DNA of 64,000 nt, taken from the sequence record OQ708376.1, one strand, 5' to 3'. The notes beneath the pieces are model-generated. The model searched no databases. It was not told the origin of the DNA and saw nothing but the letters and a program-made list of their open reading frames with translations. Positions within the stretch are counted from its first letter, which is position 1. Each line of letters opens with the position of its first letter. Positions 17,301 to 60,938 of the stretch are shown in pieces. The translations under genes and the position numbers were made by a program. This DNA comes from Escherichia phage vB_EcoM_CRJP21.

Positions 17301-18345
17301 CCCACAAAGATCCATTCCAGTACATAGAACTATTACCATACTCATTACCTTTAGTGATTAGAACAACATCACCATCTTGAGGTTCACCACTTGGGCGTGA
17401 TTCGGTTTCTTCTTCTGGATCTAGTGCTAAACCATAAACACGAGTACCATCTTGCATTTTTTTCACATATACATTATAAATTCTATTGTTTTCACCATTG
17501 TTACCAATACTGGTGAATAGAATACGCATTCCATCTTGCGGAATAATACCATCAATACGTATACCACTATTAATATCTTTTTGAACGATATCTTCAGGTT
17601 TAATAATATCAGAGAACAGATCAACAGTTCCACGGAATTTTGTACCGTAGTTAATTAGCTCAATATTTTTATTATATTCAATAATTGGTGCACGTGCACG
17701 AATAAAACGTGAATCTTGCATTAATTCTTCAGTTAATATTGAGCCATCTTCTAATGTTTCACCTAAAGTATACCAAAAGTTTTGTAGTGACCATGTATTA
17801 CCATTAAGTGCTCCACGTTCCATTACAATGTAATCAGGTGAAGTAATATTATAAGAGTTTTTAGTATCCCAAAGATATGAGCTAAAATTGTTCATTTTAT
17901 TTGGGTTAATAGCTGGAGTCCATGCATAAAACTTACCGTTGAACAAACGGCTTTCATTATCGGTTAGTGCTCCATAATGATTCATGTATCCAACTAGATC
18001 ATCATAAAATTGAATTGAACGAATTGTCGAATCATCATTTTTTGAGACGTAAGCAGTGGACAACTGATAAAGTTGACGTGCTACAGTACTTTCATGTAAG
18101 AAGATATTACCAGCAGCGGCAGGAGAACCCATATCACCAATATAGCCGTCAACTAATTCGTTTTCAGCCGGATTAAACCATTGTTGAATAACATCATCAC
18201 TGACTTTTTGAATATCTTCTAAGCCTTGCATCCACTCAGGCAATCTTTTAATAAAAAGCTTCTTCTGTACTGCTTCAGCCATCTGTGTAGGTTGAAACTT
18301 AAAATTATTAGTCATTTTTGGACTCCATATAATTCGTTCATTCAT
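8344..18345 (-). CDS. Giant virion structural protein (3333 aa), probably baseplate or tail-fibre associated
   Basis: Single uninterrupted 10-kb ORF immediately downstream of the gp6-like gene (the position of gp7 and later wedge/fibre genes in T4); Asn/Tyr/Gly/Thr-rich fibre-like composition. Confidence 0.65.
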   Translation of the reverse strand: MNERIIWSPKMTNNFKFQPTQMAEAVQKKLFIKRLPEWMQGLEDIQKVSDDVIQQWFNPAENELVDGYIGDMGSPAAAGNIFLHESTVARQLYQLSTAYVSKNDDSTIRSIQFYDDLVGYMNHYGALTDNESRLFNGKFYAWTPAINPNKMNNFSSYLWDTKNSYNITSPDYIVMERGALNGNTWSLQNFWYTLGETLEDGSILTEELMQDSRFIRARAPIIEYNKNIELINYGTKFRGTVDLFSDIIKPEDIVQKDINSGIRIDGIIPQDGMRILFTSIGNNGENNRIYNVYVKKMQDGTRVYGLALDPEEETESRPSGEPQDGDVVLITKGNEYGNSSMYWNGSLWVRAQSKTSVNVFPKFQLYDRNGIKLDNSTTYPSSNFKGSELFGFKINYNYATDSVYGYNIELGDYNYYIYENFLQSQRYTYDHLGKEVEIDGLYYYNIIDENNEMNLQTDWVRSEEYSKQFVKQTPQVQRTDMYRVFSTVYDMEVFKEPVDGMYAYVIEVDRTYQYYKADRETYLDWHPITGDGVQIVKYDHTFELAQKVLDNDSDIIEVVVDGVDVSKYTKNVSKGQVQSITLDSTVELDEDSVIQIRTYSSTVTPNKELGAYEVPINLQNNPYNSNIIYINQGDYTLHFQDIIQKNITRGSSDDFNDYEERLAKGLVNNGVGTKIIQNEASMLPLMAHTANEDIDLFEATMFMQSEYFRFINKFNTQMLRMYDENPSDFLQNSAANIVDAILTTINMGRDSSFPFYYDNVGSTSGFIRAFIPPTPQFLGILQAYVPEKATFLTAGSKPSCYNISHTGIISKAYRVINGVDKMDDVVYELENRIFNSIDNKFKDVDYVPVLNSDDLFPTPYFTKTEYSAEEKQTLLLRGYINFTATNGISNSTHDYDPNNWRTWNYTGTYYVVNGQSTEIPARGSWRAIYTDQYGTYRPATHPWEMFGFTQRPTWWNQEYEPTAVQVGERDSDVVYVYEALVMNEQGDLVPSGLWDIDGTIGDSSTGTILFGDRRGQYDKYKRFGVQPFKITKTGNKTSSGIDICVVEYIAPEILGLVSGSLNHRAEPWTYGDMGDMEFTYMNTTLFAYDQMMLLYKAKPAQFANYFWDTRNDNLKEVFTDGSQFLYGDTRKRINFDKNTVVHGENSTRTIGYQMFVSDHLMYQNKNITTKYGDVVRSSYINVGHKIGGFTKADQLTFNAKSFGLISQENQTIGLVRSNNIRDEQMSAIKITWNGSAYQIDGYDLVGAKFKYKLPVKNGRKVTLKLENRNVVHYNEWKSEASIEYGKVFNSYQEVYTFICGYGEYLKEHGWIFEDVNDSGAQQDWNTIAKDFVIWSQNSLVTGEFISCTPSAANAKFGADFGSVQSITQNNGGVWSLLDDNNQGIRQYEIETSRIGNIFTVRTLESNKRIALIRLSLCSYEHAVIFDDKTIFGDYIYQPTYGSIQELIKMYGYITGSWTGRLQAPGFIILEAGTLPSFEKLVSDFQHYYDSETPVSDVQLQELSNHLIGYQSRDYLQRMISSDVSRVDFYKGFIHDKGTNQVLERVLRVSKSYDTDEYKALQEWAFKIGTYGNIDGKKNLQFKLINDQFKQQPQMVSFDVNATSNGNGNHIVYFGEQGKDPRWITRPNGKFSFPMRSGRSENIQLPDIGPVTLDEVSYTTKDFSTAYNDRITYTNGKGENPESVWMFKDGNGLWNIFELVDTNVQMVSITPIENTDVYAEQFCKVTLTDNVPLEDGDYYYFVDETNFMPDTLTVESQYYTAGSDPKVMVVPFDTSIDIEFTDPDTRPRLYRYVSRFASTDDRQAYIDKKYSFKAPQSTLFDRPTTYDERTNITELYLNVYDPINGVIPGAAMQNVTYTSPVDPAQYNSNGELIQAWGADKVGQVWWNTSTAFYLDYTRAIYDADGNVDIDATNEYKRYNWGRLLPHSTIDVLEWVCSPVEPYNWDKYCKDVAKKNKNNTMYLPSGTALEDNYSTFLEYDSSTDSYVTKYYFWVRDTIYVPPLHTRTKSCTDIARIIKDPTQLNIPWFAPINENSFILSNMQFKVNDDTSILTVSYYMDSTEVVKHDQYQLCKEGDSYNFNPLIWDSMWNSLIGQETTESGSVINLLYPDVDNGLGSNKTWFQNVIEARRNFVESANNYYRSQNITTNSVVMEDVFNVKTTEVNPNEVSFRVLSYNNELVIAVESDKFKENDAVILSTSGYLPNPLTSSAVYFIHFDENGYIQLMNSPANAGSVVTITLENKGEGQHKMIKQSDYVESLGTSLDMTQYWSYADWYDVGYDSNTTYTQESSLEDANTKNYQVGDIIRVTDSENIWTLYIKSQSRDSIYWKAIGRENSTVELNDMLYADYSVHNDNGSLSNREINVRKALALLKNSFDLHQSEIVFDMVKYVHVEQSVVDWVFKTSYIYIVGLEQSLVQNYSNDNLINQIVEYFEEVKPYRTKIRSQIEQKTSDDDLIKGLCNDLDPNGYIFVDGSWIKTEKDIWDYEYAQFNEITQKWEQVGSLPSDFVTPNRRFQEIDIIMHYDNIQCKPNEDLASINELVSVNNKYQSNEKDAVSNYELQRYIYSFPEYSEETFDLLIAYQMQIYYPELDVTLGTAYGVNQWYKDHAEDLEATDEFTATLERVYKESTHNDMFTDLRQYVQYNTLANRLKLYKDISDEKIHDEVGCGFSGLTYNDNPSTRLPLGFSSSNDYNYGYFEISSELYQKYISLIKDKNPDASDYEVKVKLEVEYGVYVYRYDEVGGDTRFYTDAIHVLAGMRGLFDKDATDKYEKAEEILSKTPIDIYAITMIPRKYVYLNVNGVYQSIPDEQSIDDFMEDYFITNGEMVELAEINLDDLPLDQNNPMYSDYQYILDSITEAKYFNDMNAFDNLALESQTSSIKWEVKDDEVDPYIVDISDINPSGRDVGQIRFTVDGYGFDNVSLVQLRDNSRYQTEGMAIINPYKHTEAIVSIPSYAKIENDINKTTSKFDEKYFYRVRSINSLTEAEIVDNDLSDGDKVMIFTPDGEDFVRYQNHTWETILRVSNIKNNTTPILFTVRNTGKETIELIDESTGAVLRYDNITLAQQNEPVQPLALNIVRVRTFADPEFVKNGIKLYEQNRNYTIDVINYDVFYDTTLNGGKYNDGITPDDVDVWIISNEIFDVDGITIDNGYNLPITGAGVLSELARTKMTDSLEINVIEYDSSVIQPFRNNEGIWVYGFPMVDGMYIGVVGGTVTNITTISEENTTYVSQPKSISPYSIRNNVLSGSAANMNDIISIGYEKVEVRNANNLLRGVMYSAEHDFKLNTTYSFNGINLGNYDMLKRYTQNSYTIDLSVYTDSLQVSGNDIKNILLVK

Positions 18346-18361
18346 TTGATTTATTTATGAT

Positions 18362-18388
18362 ATAAAAAAGGCGTTCCGAAGAACGCCC
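18362..18388 (-). terminator. Rho-independent terminator (minus strand)
   Basis: Stem GGCGTTC / GAACGCC with CGAA loop (UUCG on the minus-strand RNA) and a minus-strand T-run; between the gp6-like and giant genes. Confidence 0.6.
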
Positions 18389-18394
18389 GTTATA

Positions 18395-21300
18395 TTAAGA
18401 ACCGATATTAATATTACTTTTAGCTAGTGAGTTAACAATTTGAACATTTTCAACAGATGCAGTACTCAAAAATATTTGGTCTGAACGTGAAGGGATTTCA
18501 AATAGAGAGCCAAATTTTGAATTTGGATTTTGTGCAACTATAACAATGGTACTAATATGTCTACCTAACTGTGAGTGTATGTAAGTACACAAATCAGTAT
18601 AATAGAAACTTTCACCGAAATCCCAGTTGTCAACATTGAAGTATTCATTAGTTAATGCTATAACATTTTGACGAATTTCATCGTCACTCATTGTGCTGTT
18701 TGGTAATTTCACTACTTTAAAATCAGCTTTGTAATCTTCAGCAGCACTGTTGCCAAATAAAGGTAAGTACTCAGCACTATGCCAAATAATACTATCACTA
18801 ATGACTATTTTTTGTTCAACATCTTTGAACATATCTTTCAATTCAACCGATGTAGGTGGTTTAGGAATACTACCAACAGCATTATTTTTCAACCAAACGT
18901 CAACTTCAGTTTTATATGAATTGGTTAATACATACATATCAATTAAGTTTGTTCTACTAGGATCAATGCGATTGTCGTCAGGTGCATAGTGTTTCCAATG
19001 GAAGTCTATACTAGTACGTGCATTAGTTTTAACAGTGTACTGTGAAGTAACATCTTTGTATCCATAATAATCTAGCTTCTGATTCTCGTCAGCATTAGTT
19101 CCCATGTTATTAATTGCACGATAAAAAGCCAATTCAGGACTAACAGTGCCAGTATCATCGGAATAAGTTAAATTACTAATTAGCTGTCCTAAACGATCAT
19201 TGTTATTACCAACTGTTTGTTCAATAAAATAATATTTACCATCATAGTTAAAACCAACTAAAAATCCAGAACCTTTACTATATAATCCACTCAATGTGGT
19301 TGAACGAATTGCGTTATTTCTAACAAATTCAGTTCTTTTATATGCATTCGGCTCTGCCAAGGCTTGTTCCATTGTATAAGACCACGATGAATCAAGAAGT
19401 GTGAAGGTATCATTTGGTAACGACAGTACTGATATAGTGAAATCACTATTTTCCTGAAATACCAAAATACCACCATATTTTAATGCATCGGTTCCAGTCC
19501 AAGTAGGAACAATTTCTTTAAATTGGTTTGGTTCCAATGGTATACCATTACTATCTACTTTCCTAGATGTAACAATAACACGAGAACCATCTAGATAGCC
19601 ATTCTCTTGTTGAATTGTGTCATAAATTTGAAAATCTATATTACTTGTCAATCCTGAATTACTACTACTAGTAGTGTTAGATGATAAAATTTCAATCTTA
19701 TCACTTTGAACTGTACCAGTACTAATATCAGTAATTTTTTTAGATGATACAAAGTAAAATCTTACTTTTTCTCCACCCACAAAAATATATTCAATACCGT
19801 TAGCATCAAATTCCCAAGTTTCTGCTGTATATTTTACATTAATTATAATTAAAACTTCATTACCATTATATACAATAGTATCATCATTGGTACTTACTTC
19901 AATAGGAACCCATGATGTCGTTTCTTTGTCATGTACAATAACAAAATCAGTTTTTTTATCTAGCATAGCAGAAATTGCTTGAACTTCAACCGAGTTAAAT
20001 CTAGTTCTATATGGTAAAATGTACTCTATGGCTTGCATTCCACTTGGAACCGATGTACTCAGTACATAAAATCCATTATCCAATACACTAACTACACTAG
20101 CCCATATAGTAGTTCCAGAATTAGAAAATTTAATTAGAGTACCAACCTGATATGAACCATAAACTGTACCAGATGAACCCAAAATTCTACCATATGTGTT
20201 AGTTGTATAATTTGAATTGTATACCGGAGTCCATGCTTGTTGTATTTCAATACCAATTGTATTTGATGGAAACGCTTGGTAACGTTGTATTACCGCATTT
20301 TCACCAATCAATGGTTGAATATTGTCAATAACAATACTAGCATTTGTTTTTGTAGTTGGTAGCAATAATGATCTATTAAATTGTGTGTTTTCTTGATATA
20401 ATGCACCATCATCACTAAAAACATCGGTATTTTGATACTTACCAGTAGGATCATTAATATCAATAAATCTTGATTGTCCACTATAAATTCTATTAATAGC
20501 TTTAGATTTAAGTACAGTATTGCCTAAACTAAGTGGTGCAATATTATAATCTTCACCATTGACAAAACGGTTTTGTGTATAGTACATTTGTGGTGCACGT
20601 GCTTTAATCTGCTCAATAGTCTCTGCACTTTGTGCACGGTCGGACTCATATTGTAATGAAAAACGTATATCCAATGTACTAGATTCATAACTTGACTGTG
20701 TTTTTGTACGATATGTATATTTTACGCTTTTGTTTTGAATTTCAGAAGTTTTAATGTTATATGTTTTACCATTACTAACACGATACCATACGCGGAACGT
20801 CCCACGGGGAACAACACCACTTCTTGAGTCTGGATACTTAATTGTTATTTGATCTTTATCACGAGTAGTAACAGCAAAAATTGTTTTTAATTGACGATTA
20901 ACAGTGTTATATGCAATACTTTCCATTGATGGAACTTTTGTCCATTTGGTACGAACAATACCATCTTCATTTATTTCTTGAACCCATACATCAGTTTCGT
21001 TGATATTATCAACGTTAATATCTTGTATACGGTTCTCTTCACGGATAGCATATTGATAATCTTGATATGTCAATGTACCTTGTACGAAATATACAAAAAA
21101 ACCAGTATTTGGTGAACTAAATCCATTACCATCATTTTGATAAACAATATATTTTTGCTCTTGTGGTTCTGGATGTCGTTCTTCAACACCAACAGACGTA
21201 ATATCAGGATTCACTACTTCAAATGTCATAGATTCACCATTGACAGTTGCAATAAATGGAATACTGGGTGCTGTCATTGGGATGGTGTTCATTCGATATA

Positions 21301-33027: not shown

Positions 33028-33058
33028 GATAAAGGGAGCCTTAGCTCCCTTTTTTTAT
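33028..33058. terminator. Bidirectional rho-independent terminator
   Basis: Stem GGGAGC (33034-33039) / GCTCCC (33044-33049), loop CTTA, then T-run; overlaps the stop codon of the minus-strand gene. Confidence 0.7.
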
Positions 33059-33532
33059 ATCAACCATATTTAATTTACCGTCCTTAATCAGCTTTCTAGC
33101 TTGCTTTACACGAGCAGTAGTGTTACTACCAGGGACAACTCCTAACCCTTCCAGAATCGCGTTTTGCTGTGTTGCTGGAAGCCTTTTAAACTTATTAACA
33201 TCCACAGTTAGTGCAGTGTGATGTATAACTTGTTCATCGTCAGGAATGCTGTTATTACGCTCTAAGTAATCAGCAAGATTTCTGAGTACCTCATATAATG
33301 GTTTATCAGTTAAGTGCTTCATATATCGATTGAAGCTGTTTTGTACCTTTCCTTCCCAAGCATTGACTTCATTTTGAAGAACTTGTCTACAATGTTGGTT
33401 ACCATAGTGGTAGTGATCCAGTACTGGTTTAGTTATTGGTTCTTTAATTATAGGATCTATTCCATTTTGTTTCTTTAGTAATTTGTTTCGATAGTTTGCA
33501 GCATCCTTACTATCTTTTAATCTTTTTTTCAT
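33041..33532 (-). CDS. Endonuclease VII-like (gp49-like) junction-resolving nuclease, lacking the zinc cysteines
   Basis: By-eye alignment with T4 endo VII: QNG, LDHYHY (LDHDHE in T4), NAWEG (NAAEG), FNR, L..YLE; the four Zn-ligand Cys positions are not Cys here; TATAAATA late-promoter motif upstream on the minus strand. Confidence 0.45.
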   Translation of the reverse strand: MKKRLKDSKDAANYRNKLLKKQNGIDPIIKEPITKPVLDHYHYGNQHCRQVLQNEVNAWEGKVQNSFNRYMKHLTDKPLYEVLRNLADYLERNNSIPDDEQVIHHTALTVDVNKFKRLPATQQNAILEGLGVVPGSNTTARVKQARKLIKDGKLNMVDIKKGS

Positions 33533-33562
33533 AATTCCTCACCAAACTATTTGTTATCAAAA

Positions 33563-33570
33563 TATTTATA
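33563..33570 (-). promoter_or_regulatory. T4-type late promoter motif TATAAATA (minus strand)
   Basis: Plus-strand TATTTATA at 33563-33570, about 30 nt upstream of the endo VII-like start codon. Confidence 0.4.
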
Positions 33571-33623
33571 GATTAGTTATTTGCAATATTTTAAGTACTT
33601 AATGAATATTTTTATAAAAATAG

Positions 33624-33652
33624 TGAGACAACTTTAAAGTTTGTGCTATAAT
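33624..33652 (+). promoter_or_regulatory. Promoter: TGAGAC, 17-bp spacer, TGcTATAAT
   Basis: TGAGAC at 33624-33629, TATAAT at 33647-33652 with TG at 33644-33645; no protein-coding ORF downstream. Confidence 0.5.
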
Positions 33653-33659
33653 GTTTGTT

Positions 33660-34107
33660 GTAGTAATGACAATCCTGTTGAATGCAGAAATGCATATAAA
33701 TTAGAACCTGATCCTATCGAAAATGTAGATGGCAGATGAGCAGTTCAACAGTGCGATGAGCAAAAGAAACCCGTTAGATGTGGGCATAGTTTGAACCCCT
33801 CACGGCAATGCGGCTCAATAAAGAACTCCGATAAGCATACAGAGAGTTCCTCGATAGACATATAAGGATCGCACCTTACCAGATTTGCTAAGGGAGTTTA
33901 TTAAGTGATTTTAATAAACAGCCTGAAGTTTGATTGTATAGACTTTCAGGTGAGTGTCAGGATGATTAAGACTGACGACCGTTGCACATGACTGCGATAG
34001 AGAGAAACAGAGCAACCCGCTTTCGTTCTTAATATATTTTTAAGAAATTCGCAATACAATAAATGCTGAAACCATCAGCGTCAAGAAATAGAGACTTCAT
34101 TGTCTCT
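33660..34107 (+). ncRNA. Candidate structured non-coding RNA (about 450 nt, unknown class)
   Basis: Bounded by the promoter at 33624-33652 and an intrinsic terminator at 34090-34112; no ORF above about 20 codons on either strand; several internal hairpins; visibly less AT-rich than flanks. Confidence 0.35.
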
Positions 34108-34114
34108 TTTTTAT
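34088..34114 (+). terminator. Rho-independent terminator
   Basis: Stem AGAGAC (34090-34095) / GTCTCT (34102-34107), loop TTCATT, T-run 34108-34112. Confidence 0.7.
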
Positions 34115-34329
34115 TGTCTTCATTCCCCTGCGGGGGGATGAAAATGTCCTCAACAAATCCCGTCAAGTATTAAATCTTTTAAAGTTCTTTATAATTAATT
34201 TAATTAAATGAATATGAGTTACGTAGTAACGAATATTCTTCAGCTAACGAATGAAATGAGTTAGATGAATCCAATAATATTAAAATTAATCCTTTCATAA
34301 TTCAATTCAAATAATTCTGTAGTTTAAAA

Positions 34330-34360
34330 CCAAAAAAAAAACCAGCAACAATGTGCTGGC
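34330..34360 (-). terminator. Rho-independent terminator (minus strand)
   Basis: Stem CCAGCA / TGCTGG (34342-34359) preceded on the plus strand by a 10-A run (T-run on minus), just downstream of the minus-strand operon. Confidence 0.65.
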
Positions 34361-34370
34361 TATATGAAAA

Positions 34371-34580
34371 TTAGTGCTTCTCGTTTTGTTTTTTAATTTT
34401 TTTATTAAAAGACTTAACTAATAAGTCTCTATCTATTAATGGCATATTAAGGAGTGTTCCATAGTCAATGTTATCCATATATACAGAACATTCCATTAGT
34501 GCATTTTTGATTTCTGACTTATTCAGTTCTATCTCCTTCAGTACTTCTTGTATTTCTTCAGGAGATGACTGGAGAAGCAT
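34371..34580 (-). CDS. Hypothetical protein (69 aa)
   Basis: Small ORF overlapping the stop of the upstream gene at 34580; charged, helix-like composition. Confidence 0.4.
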   Translation of the reverse strand: MLLQSSPEEIQEVLKEIELNKSEIKNALMECSVYMDNIDYGTLLNMPLIDRDLLVKSFNKKIKKQNEKH

Positions 34581-51925: not shown

Positions 51926-51954
51926 TGAGACAAGCATCATTTTTGAGATATAAT
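51926..51954 (+). promoter_or_regulatory. Promoter: TGAGAC, 17-bp spacer, TATAAT
   Basis: TGAGAC at 51926-51931, TATAAT at 51949-51954; upstream of the clamp-like gene. Confidence 0.5.
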
Positions 51955-55554: not shown

Positions 55555-60812
<5,258 letters not shown>

Positions 60813-60822
60813 TTAAAAAATA

Positions 60823-60851
60823 TGGGACAGTATAAAAACCTGTGCTATAAT
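60823..60851 (+). promoter_or_regulatory. Promoter P2: TGGGAC, 17-bp spacer, TGcTATAAT
   Basis: TGGGAC at 60823-60828, TATAAT at 60846-60851 with TG at 60843-60844; about 90 nt upstream of the gp32-like start. Confidence 0.5.
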
Positions 60852-60938
60852 GTAAAACGTTGAAGGAACAATGAAGTTTCTGAAACATTGAAGCCAATTA
60901 ACAAATAACAAAGAAACCCAAAATCAAGGAAGATATAT

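Follow-up and report, generated by a model that had tools for sequence, protein, structure and literature searches.

The 64,000-nt stretch analyzed here (hereafter the window, whose coordinates are used throughout) comes from Escherichia phage vB_EcoM_CRJP21 (OQ708376.1), an Asteriusvirus, i.e., a 121Q/PBECO4-like jumbo myovirus infecting E. coli, and the interval 33533-34370 very probably holds a real gene for a structured noncoding RNA (ncRNA) of a family absent from Rfam. On neither strand does this interval (838 bp) contain an open reading frame (ORF) of at least 60 codons and, as an earlier note on this DNA had remarked, it is the only one of several hundred base pairs in the window; the second-largest interior ORF-free gap measures 167 bp. 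Its neighbors are intact genes, one for a 163-aa endonuclease VII homologue and the other a convergent 69-aa ORF. Regarding its composition, the lower AT content that had been noticed was borne out, with 39.5% GC over 33660-34175 against 20-24% in the flanks and 34.5% in the whole window; the DNA downstream, at 34176-34370, has 23.6% GC. BLAST searches with 33533-34370 found 99-100% identity to Escherichia phages 121Q, PBECO4, G17, SHEFM2K and others, whose genomes are roughly 310-385 kb long. The interval is unannotated in careful annotations (G17 and UE-S1), and some automatic GenBank annotations place small "hypothetical proteins" across it.

As for its promoter, the one of the early class that the earlier note had read at 33624-33652 is present on the + strand; the consensus scan identified it as sigma-70-type, with a -35-like TGAGAC, a 17-nt spacer and the extended -10 element TGcTATAAT (TGAGAC-N17-TGCTATAAT). 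The pattern TGAGAC-N15-19-TATAAT occurs twice in the window, with 0.19 occurrences expected, and transcription is predicted to start near 33659-33660. Among 32 family members, TATAAT is found at the aligned position in 31, and the upstream TG in 29; the promoter is a host-type extended -10 promoter both in phages and in the bacterial islands described below.

The fold of the RNA was defined by comparison with its homologues, in which base-pair covariation rather than codon periodicity governs the substitutions among related phages. The alignment consisted of 36 sequences (pairwise identity of at most 96%, and 59-96% identical to the window copy), and the helices were derived from a covariation scan and RNAalifold. 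The 71 pairs of 14 helices, three pseudoknots included, had a standard pair in 96.6% of the cells, a count that kinship inflates, compared to 37.5-45.5% in a slid-partner control that retains the kinship, with the 3' partners shifted by 1-3 columns; the sequences form at least 16 clusters. Double-sided (compensatory) changes occurred in 46 of the 71 pairs against 12-19 when slid, the covariation score was 0.465 against 0.05-0.09, and none of 500 shuffles matched the observed values. For the core, alignment A4 combined the 36 sequences with six members of a divergent subfamily; in these 42 sequences 98.1% of the cells were paired (39-50% when slid), with double changes in 23 of 31 pairs. The covariance model R1, built from A4 and describing a 129-position core, matches the window site at 128 bits (E ~3e-28) and has no other match in the window. 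Regarding the strand, the G-U pairs fit the + strand only, namely, the invariant G34002-U34022 of helix P13 and the U-G pairs of P17; the folding energy was better than that of shuffles with z = -4.3 for the + strand and z = -3.1 for the - strand, so that it cannot identify the strand by itself. The whole RNA has at least 17 helices and three pseudoknots in ~0.5 kb.

The RNA is organized in two domains, both read from the + strand, as are all the helices that follow. The 5' domain (33660..33888) contains helices P1-P7 and the pseudoknot PKo. P1 (33682-33695) has a GAAA loop, often GNRA in other members, and forms a hairpin in 35 of the 36 homologues; P1, P10 (33922-33950) and P11 (33955-33977) are the three hairpins listed in the earlier note, which recur with differing sequences in 35-36 of the 36. 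P2 (33708-18/33728-35) exposes the conserved loop CGAAAAUGUAG. In alignment A2, P3 (33740-42/33752-54) and P4 (33757-61/33813-17) are 99-100% paired with compensatory changes; P5 (33771-74/33802-05) is paired to the same extent (99-100%) and is invariant, so that it has no compensatory changes, and P5a, within the same domain, is variable. P6 (33823-28/33844-49) is 97.6% paired in A2, with compensatory changes, and PKo (33808-10/33859-61) is 98.1% paired, with AUG/CAU, AUA/UAU and ACA/UGU as its alternative forms. P7 (33863-67/33874-78) is a hairpin in 35 of the 36 homologues; indels displace P1, P7, P11 and P15 in the alignment, yet they fold in 33-36 of the 36 with different sequences. RNAalifold also paired 33738-40 with 34163-65; all three pairs are invariant, which gives no evidence for or against them, and this pairing was therefore omitted from the model.

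The 5' domain is joined to the 3' core by the single-stranded junction UAAGGGAG (33889..33896), which is nearly invariant, its AAgGGA being identical in all 42 sequences, divergent subfamily included. This junction looks like a Shine-Dalgarno sequence, and no conserved ORF comes after it; a 28-codon GTG ORF (33905-33991), starting 9 nt downstream, was rejected because it is not conserved in the homologues, and it is probably not translated.

The 3' core (33896..34085) is universally conserved and comprises P9-P15 and the pseudoknots PKb and PKf. P9 (33896-33919) is variable, and P10 (33922-29/33942-50) contributes its loop to PKb (33933-39/34054-60), which pairs this loop with a downstream strand through seven pairs, of which six have double changes; the PKb of the divergent subfamily has a wholly different sequence, CUCAUAU/AUAUGAG. 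P11 (33955-59/33973-77) is a local hairpin, and PKf pairs 33981-85 with 34012-16 in the loop of P13, with 100% of the cells paired. P12 (33993-97/34049-53), P13 (34000-04/34020-24) and P14 (34026-32/34040-46) form a three-way junction. Finally, P15 (34063-69/34075-81) is a local hairpin, and the first of two CGUCAAG motifs is at 34079-85. Pairing of the U-run or the G-run with conserved A-rich or C-rich segments was also considered; the complementarity is present, without covariation.

Many members carry a constant module, UACAAUAUAGAUCCGUC, in zero, one or two copies, at P9 and/or in the P14 loop; the window copy is without it, and examples are found in loci L011 (~640-670), L007 and L001 (2870-2900). 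Its interpretation as a dispersed repeat or miniature inverted-repeat transposable element was rejected, as matches with up to two mismatches fall only within copies of the RNA; two more matches, with three mismatches, occur elsewhere in the genome. A competition of the module for the P10 loop was rejected as well, since the two do not covary. The "repeat_region" of the UE-S1 annotation covers the 5' part of the RNA copy (~33669-33826 in window coordinates) and not this module.

Regarding the 3' end, the earlier note had described a unit running from promoter to terminator. The terminator-like hairpin, AGAGAC/GTCTCT followed by T6, is present as P16 (34090-95/34102-07, then U6; 34090..34112 as a whole, by terminator scan), but the conserved element does not stop there, and conservation reaches at least 34167. 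The stem of P16 covaries, with double changes in four of its six pairs, and it is absent, as a gap, from 10-11 of the 36 aligned homologues, while the sequence flanking it is conserved with or without it: P16 is an optional module, and it is probably the partial 3' end of a ~450-nt isoform. The segment past P16, formed by a G-run hairpin and a tail, is as conserved as the core for ~55 nt and is followed by a looser 3' tail. The G-run hairpin, P17 (34119..34142; UUCAUUCCCC-UGCG-GGGGGGAUGAA), has a nearly invariant G-run, 91% of its cells are paired, and the changes are mostly from C-G to U-G on the pyrimidine strand; it is found in all the paralogues, in the bacterial copies and in the divergent subfamily. 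The conserved single-stranded 3' segment (34143..34167) ends in CCCGTCAAG and terminates in the second CGUCAAG motif (34161-67), 82 nt from the first. These twin motifs change in step between lineages, being CGUCAAG twice, CGUCAG twice or, in the divergent subfamily, ACGAAG twice.

By comparison of the downstream sequences, the AT-rich tail (34168..34335) contains degenerate short hairpin units (TGAATATGAGTTACGTAGTAACGA...), and in other genera it ends in a covarying hairpin, AAATTCTTTGACATTCGAAGAATGGCAAATC, whose stem was read directly as CATTC/GAATG, CATAC/GTATG, CAATC/GATTG or CTAAC/GTTAG; the tail may be part of the mature RNA. Beyond it, a hairpin flanked by an A-run and a T-run (34340..34361) is shared with the baseplate-hub operon and with the convergent 69-aa ORF; the scan called it on the - strand, which is also the strand of the terminator annotated there in G17, and UE-S1 has this terminator on the + strand. 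This hairpin is a possible outermost 3' end of a read-through RNA of ~700 nt, and the predicted length of the RNA is accordingly graded: ~450 nt for an end at P16, ~510 nt with the conserved tail, and up to ~700 nt with read-through. On the other side of the locus, a perfect bidirectional terminator hairpin, AAAGGGAGC-TTAG-GCTCCCTTT (33031-33052), separates two convergent genes, one encoding a 715-aa recombination endonuclease subunit and the other the 163-aa endonuclease VII homologue, whose ORF it overlaps at the 3' end.

As for coding potential, the longest ORF in the window copy has 45 codons, the longest ones in the 36 homologues measure 31-90 codons, no ORF being conserved, and the variable columns per codon phase (91/115, 80/114 and 82/110) have no periodicity. 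The proposal of the earlier note, a phage-encoded structured RNA of a class that it could not place, is supported by the covariation, by the lack of a coding signal and of any conserved protein gene at this position in related phages, and by the absence of Rfam or ARAGORN matches. In particular, ARAGORN found no tRNA or tmRNA in the window, and the scan of the 64-kb window with the 4227 models of Rfam 15, which include GOLLD, ROOL, OLE, raiA, HEARO, 6S, RNase P, tmRNA, introns, ribozymes and riboswitches, gave no hit at the gathering score. At E<=10, the region 33500-34400 returned terminator- or promoter-like noise only, the best hit on the RNA body being tmRNA, whose 5.5 bits fall short of the required 47; across 10 diverse loci of homologues, no family recurred on the RNA body and none reached E<0.05.

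Several known systems were considered one by one. A group I or II intron was rejected, since no intron model gave a hit and the flanking genes are complete, and there are thus no exons to splice. In the hammerhead-like string CAGAUGAG (33733-40), an A replaces the essential U4, no Rfam hammerhead model gave a hit, and a helix I is impossible because the sequence on its 5' side is taken up by P2, a self-contained hairpin; more generally, for the strings reminiscent by eye of hammerhead ribozymes or thiamine pyrophosphate riboswitches (CAGAUGAG, CGAAA and AACCUGAUCC), the helices are incompatible and no covariance model gave a match. Retron msr-msd, defense-associated reverse transcriptase (DRT), omega RNA and bridge RNA systems were rejected as well, as the four phage loci and the islands have no common adjacent protein; the recombinases near the RNA in three islands are of the serine and tyrosine families, at varying distance and orientation. 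A test for an arrangement of the ColE1 RNA II type found a single antisense promoter-like site (33960-33933), in a non-conserved stretch. Literature searches returned no description of the element and no relevant transcriptomes of Rak2-like phages, and a catalogue of candidate structured RNAs covering IMG/VR holds only motifs of 29-151 nt.

The window copy is one of several in each phage genome, where BLAST found four to five matching places. In OR844650.1, a 99%-identical relative of 352 kb, four copies are on the same strand at ~18.5, 128.6, 208.3 and 261.8 kb; the window copy, copy A, is the one at ~128.6 kb, and the others span 18328-18724, 208104-208486 and 261623-261991 (loci L003, L007 and L008). 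The core covariance model finds exactly these four in OR844650.1 and one in the window. The four copies are 70-85% identical over their alignable parts, conserved from ~33700 through P16 to CCCGTCAAG at 34167, and each has its own TGnTATAAT promoter; the P16 hairpin is present in copies A and D only, and the neighboring genes of the four have nothing in common. Copies A and D of Asteriusvirus have an identical P6 hairpin, copy B has an almost identical one, and the hairpin of other genera differs, which suggests partial gene conversion between copies. In other genera, the paralogue types cluster separately across genomes and genera; together with the copy number, these clusters indicate that several copies are under long-term selection.

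Some side observations concern the promoters and the 3' ends of these copies. The other exact TGAGAC-N17-TATAAT promoter of the window is at 51926-51954, and local BLAST found two adjacent promoter-like repeats (60740-60853) that resemble the promoter region of the RNA. In the XbC2/GAP32-type paralogue lineage (L013, L017, L019, L027, L031 and L087), a GC-rich hairpin followed by T6, such as AGGACGGTGCTACGGCATCGTCCTTTTTT, separates the TATAAT box from the conserved RNA body within the first ~60 nt, an unusual order of promoter and terminator. In L044 and L033, a gene for an ADP-ribosylglycohydrolase-like protein (MSNNLDRSIGALVGLAVGDALG...) starts ~20 nt or less after the terminal hairpin of the RNA.

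Regarding its distribution, the element was found in only 70-72 of 50,697 cultured phage records, all of Rak2-like jumbo phages, whose hosts are Escherichia, Salmonella, Klebsiella, Cronobacter, Pectobacterium, Erwinia, Serratia, Yersinia and Xanthomonas. The position of copy A, after the endonuclease VII gene and before the convergent baseplate-hub operon, is kept in four genera, and copy A faces the convergent operon in Asteriusvirus, Mimasvirus, Eneladusvirus, phage 7t3 and a distant metagenomic relative. Scanning for the conserved motifs gave 29 IMG/VR stretches and 45 metagenomic ones, and the contigs of many are ~350 kb long. The divergent metagenomic subfamily (L058, L063, L067, L080, L082, L085 and L086) has the 3' half in common and a different 5' half; one of its copies is beside a T4-type baseplate gene, and the contig of another has a T4-type portal gene. 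A pattern match in Pseudomonas agarici (L047) was dismissed as a chance one, as neither nhmmer nor the covariance model confirmed it.

The RNA also occurs in bacterial chromosomes, where all the copies are at the edges of integrated elements, moron-like and with their own promoter. In Serratia fonticola and in a Serratia sp. it adjoins large serine recombinases, the S. fonticola copy being also beside two ParB/RepB-like genes; in an Enterobacteriaceae metagenome-assembled genome (MAG) it is located between thiM and the gene of a CI-like repressor, and the S. fonticola and MAG copies face convergent genes. Two of 5,426 complete E. coli genomes carry it. In E. coli LR-29-1 (NZ_AP027515.1; L095, 15950-26400), it belongs to a ~10-kb island beside ffs, which contains a tyrosine integrase disrupted by IS3, a resolvase, several hypothetical genes and the candidate defense trio PDC-M45 (DuOB, DUF488 and DUF4326/mSLOG); downstream of the RNA in this island, ~700 nt are ORF-free, with iteron-like repeats TTATCGATCGTT at ~20975-21030. 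PDC-M45 is absent from the Serratia and MAG loci, for which 8 kb were available. No protein is common to the islands, the only domain shared by islands and phage is that of a DUF4326 protein, and none of the 72,556 plasmids in PLSDB carries the RNA.

The family is absent from Rfam 15 and from the literature searched, and it belongs in kind with the large ornate phage RNAs, with an architecture of its own. Among these, GOLLD and ROOL are encoded by phages and prophages, contain multiple pseudoknots, have an unknown function and assemble into RNA-only cages; GOLLD is conserved in its 3' region and variable in its 5' region, and ROOL (rumen-originating, ornate, large) is about 500-660 nt long, with no protein partner known (PMC12286853). 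Like GOLLD, the present element is a large phage ncRNA with extensive covariation, two-domain conservation and a distribution over phages and integrated elements; unlike GOLLD, it does not match the corresponding Rfam model, it measures ~0.5 kb instead of >0.8 kb, and it is found as 4-5 diverged paralogues per genome, each with a promoter, in jumbo myoviruses of Enterobacterales. It resembles ROOL in size, in its multiple pseudoknots and in being encoded by phages and prophages, and it differs in the lack of a match to the Rfam ROOL model, in its other helices and conserved motifs, in its multiple copies and in having no adjacent tRNA island. Adjacency to tRNAs is typical of GOLLD and ROOL; the window contains no tRNAs, and the tRNA island is 12 kb from the nearest copy, copy C. 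Because neither model matched, the RNA belongs to neither family, and the likeness is one of kind only.

A further comparison is offered by PA5oct, a distant relative among the jumbo phages, related to 121Q and RaK2, in which the highly transcribed ORF-free regions ncRNA001-004, defined by RNA-seq, are 236-619 nt long; such phages, then, do make abundant long ncRNAs (PMC7318152). The region of ncRNA001/002, located in the terminal repeat (L094, 7500-23500), had no similarity to the present RNA by nhmmer, by the core covariance model or by eye; ncRNA001/002 may be a separate class of jumbo-phage RNA.

We consider it rather probable that the element encodes an autonomous, trans-acting, early-expressed "ornate" RNA particle comparable to GOLLD and ROOL; its transcription, 3' ends, trans action, function and the nature of its partner are inferred. 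Three observations argue for autonomy: the promoter is of host type in phages and islands; copy A and two bacterial copies are without a co-oriented downstream gene, copy A facing a convergent operon and thus having no gene to regulate; and the genes downstream of the other copies are unrelated. In such a mechanism, the host sigma-70 RNA polymerase would transcribe the RNA from its extended -10 promoter early in infection, and in the bacterial islands the RNA would be made constitutively. It would fold by itself into the lineage-variable 5' domain and the universally conserved 3' core, in which the P12/P13/P14 three-way junction would be locked by PKf and stacked on the loop-to-tail pseudoknot PKb. 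The RNA would then act in trans as an abundant particle, for which the four to five gene copies would provide the dosage. Its functional center would consist of the 3' core and of the invariant single-stranded motifs UAAGGGAG, GACCGU, GAAAC-G, ACCCGC, the G-run and the twin CGUCAAG; these would engage a partner that any enterobacterial cell provides, be it a macromolecule of the host or further copies of the RNA. Since islands and phages share no candidate protein partner, this partner is probably either the RNA itself or some host component that Enterobacterales have in common.

Some points weigh against this autonomous particle. Downstream of copies B, C and D, co-oriented genes begin within 60-140 nt, and some paralogues of other genera have a ribosome binding site directly after the 3' hairpin; for these copies and similar paralogues, a cis role may apply. 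A terminator within a conserved RNA is odd and, if it were efficient, the G-run hairpin and the tail would rarely be transcribed. In addition, GOLLD and ROOL adjoin tRNAs and the present gene does not, and the transcription, abundance and 3' ends proposed above are deductions from sequence.

An alternative that we judge unlikely is a cis-acting leader whose co-transcriptional fold, at the head of early transcription units, would control read-through of P16 and of later terminators, either as an attenuator or riboswitch or as a processive antiterminator similar to HK022 put and EAR RNA. The latter are promoter-proximal structured RNAs of phages or bacteria, of about 70-120 nt and located upstream of terminators and genes, and they resemble the layout of copies B, C and D and of several paralogues of other genera, with promoter, structured RNA, terminator-like hairpin and then co-oriented genes; the conservation that persists past the terminator also fits, and several copies would suit several early operons. 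However, copy A runs into the convergent late baseplate operon behind a terminator in every genus examined, and two bacterial copies are placed likewise, so that these copies have nothing downstream to antiterminate; where downstream genes exist, they vary between paralogues, which leaves no shared regulated function. Moreover, P16 is self-contained and missing from part of the homologues with its neighboring sequence unchanged, and its strands do not overlap the core helices, unlike those of a riboswitch expression platform; a riboswitch or attenuator leader was rejected on these grounds. The put and EAR elements are not known to have such a pseudoknotted core, and ~500 nt with three pseudoknots is far above their known sizes. 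The association with bacterial islands leads to a different proposal, which we regard as quite unlikely: a trans RNA with a role in conflict, antitoxin-like or acting as a decoy against a host defense or nuclease, captured by the islands as immunity against their own effector or as a dominant negative against phages. The LR-29-1 island pairs the RNA with the PDC-M45 trio and recombinases, the bacterial copies have moron-like edge positions with their own promoter, and phages are known to copy RNA antitoxins, e.g., pseudo-ToxI; against this, no protein is consistently adjacent in islands or phages, PDC-M45 is missing from the 8 kb available for the Serratia and MAG loci, and the size and fold far exceed those of known RNA antitoxins, with no tandem repeats.

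A further idea is that of a replication-origin transcript, forming an R-loop or primer at several dispersed origins in the style of T4 oriF/oriG or ColE1 RNA II, with satellite-like islands exploiting the phage replisome. As in those systems, a promoter drives a non-coding transcript of several hundred nucleotides with a G-rich element, here the invariant G-run, from dispersed loci (18, 129, 208 and 262 kb of 352 kb) and into very AT-rich DNA (23.6% GC at 34176-34370); ColE1 RNA II holds its hybrid via a G-rich segment, and the S. fonticola copy is beside two ParB/RepB-like genes. This is nevertheless very unlikely, because the selection here acts on a strand-specific fold with three pseudoknots, far stronger and more complex than in those transcripts and not needed by the T4-type ones; in addition, none of the 72,556 plasmids carries the RNA, the cumulative GC skew, which here mostly follows transcription, does not change direction at copies B, C or D, and no replication initiator was seen among the ORFs scanned in the E. 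coli island and in the 8-kb bacterial loci. Finally, a known class diverged past recognition (group I/II intron, RNase P, tmRNA or hammerhead-type ribozyme) or a decayed protein gene is scarcely credible. The short strings that recall ribozyme cores on direct reading (CAGAUGAG, CGAAA and GUC) would speak for the former, and the "hypothetical proteins" of some GenBank records for the latter; but on the RNA body no Rfam hit reached E<0.05, be it in the 10 homologues or in the window copy, ARAGORN was silent, the hammerhead-like strings are not set around three helices, and the small annotated ORFs are not conserved and show no codon periodicity.

In conclusion, the analysis adds to the earlier note four paralogues per genome, three pseudoknots, conservation past the terminator, a subfamily that has the 3' core only, and the copies in bacterial islands. 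GOLLD, ROOL, OLE and raiA are among the few big conserved RNAs whose function is still unknown, and their hosts are mostly hard to manipulate; the present RNA is of comparable complexity and occurs in lytic jumbo phages that grow on laboratory E. coli (121Q, PBECO4, G17 and phAPEC6). These phages, along with the natural single copy in E. coli chromosomes, make knock-outs, antisense knock-down, pull-downs and cryo-EM feasible. A bolder scenario, which we put forward tentatively and with more doubt than confidence, is that of a new large functional RNA, a ribozyme or an RNA-only multimeric particle similar to the GOLLD and ROOL cages, produced in large amounts by four to five genes as infection begins and capturing or modifying a universal host component such as the ribosome, RNA polymerase or an RNase, with the bacterial islands having stolen single copies as decoys or immunity; if so, the twin motif that changes in step would represent two equivalent recognition or processing sites. 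For the phages themselves, the RNA fills the largest unannotated gap of genomes of ~350 kb, and three more gaps in each of them, and it reveals that they retain several ancient paralogues of one RNA; the link between these phage RNA genes and bacterial defense and mobile islands hints at an arms race at the RNA level.

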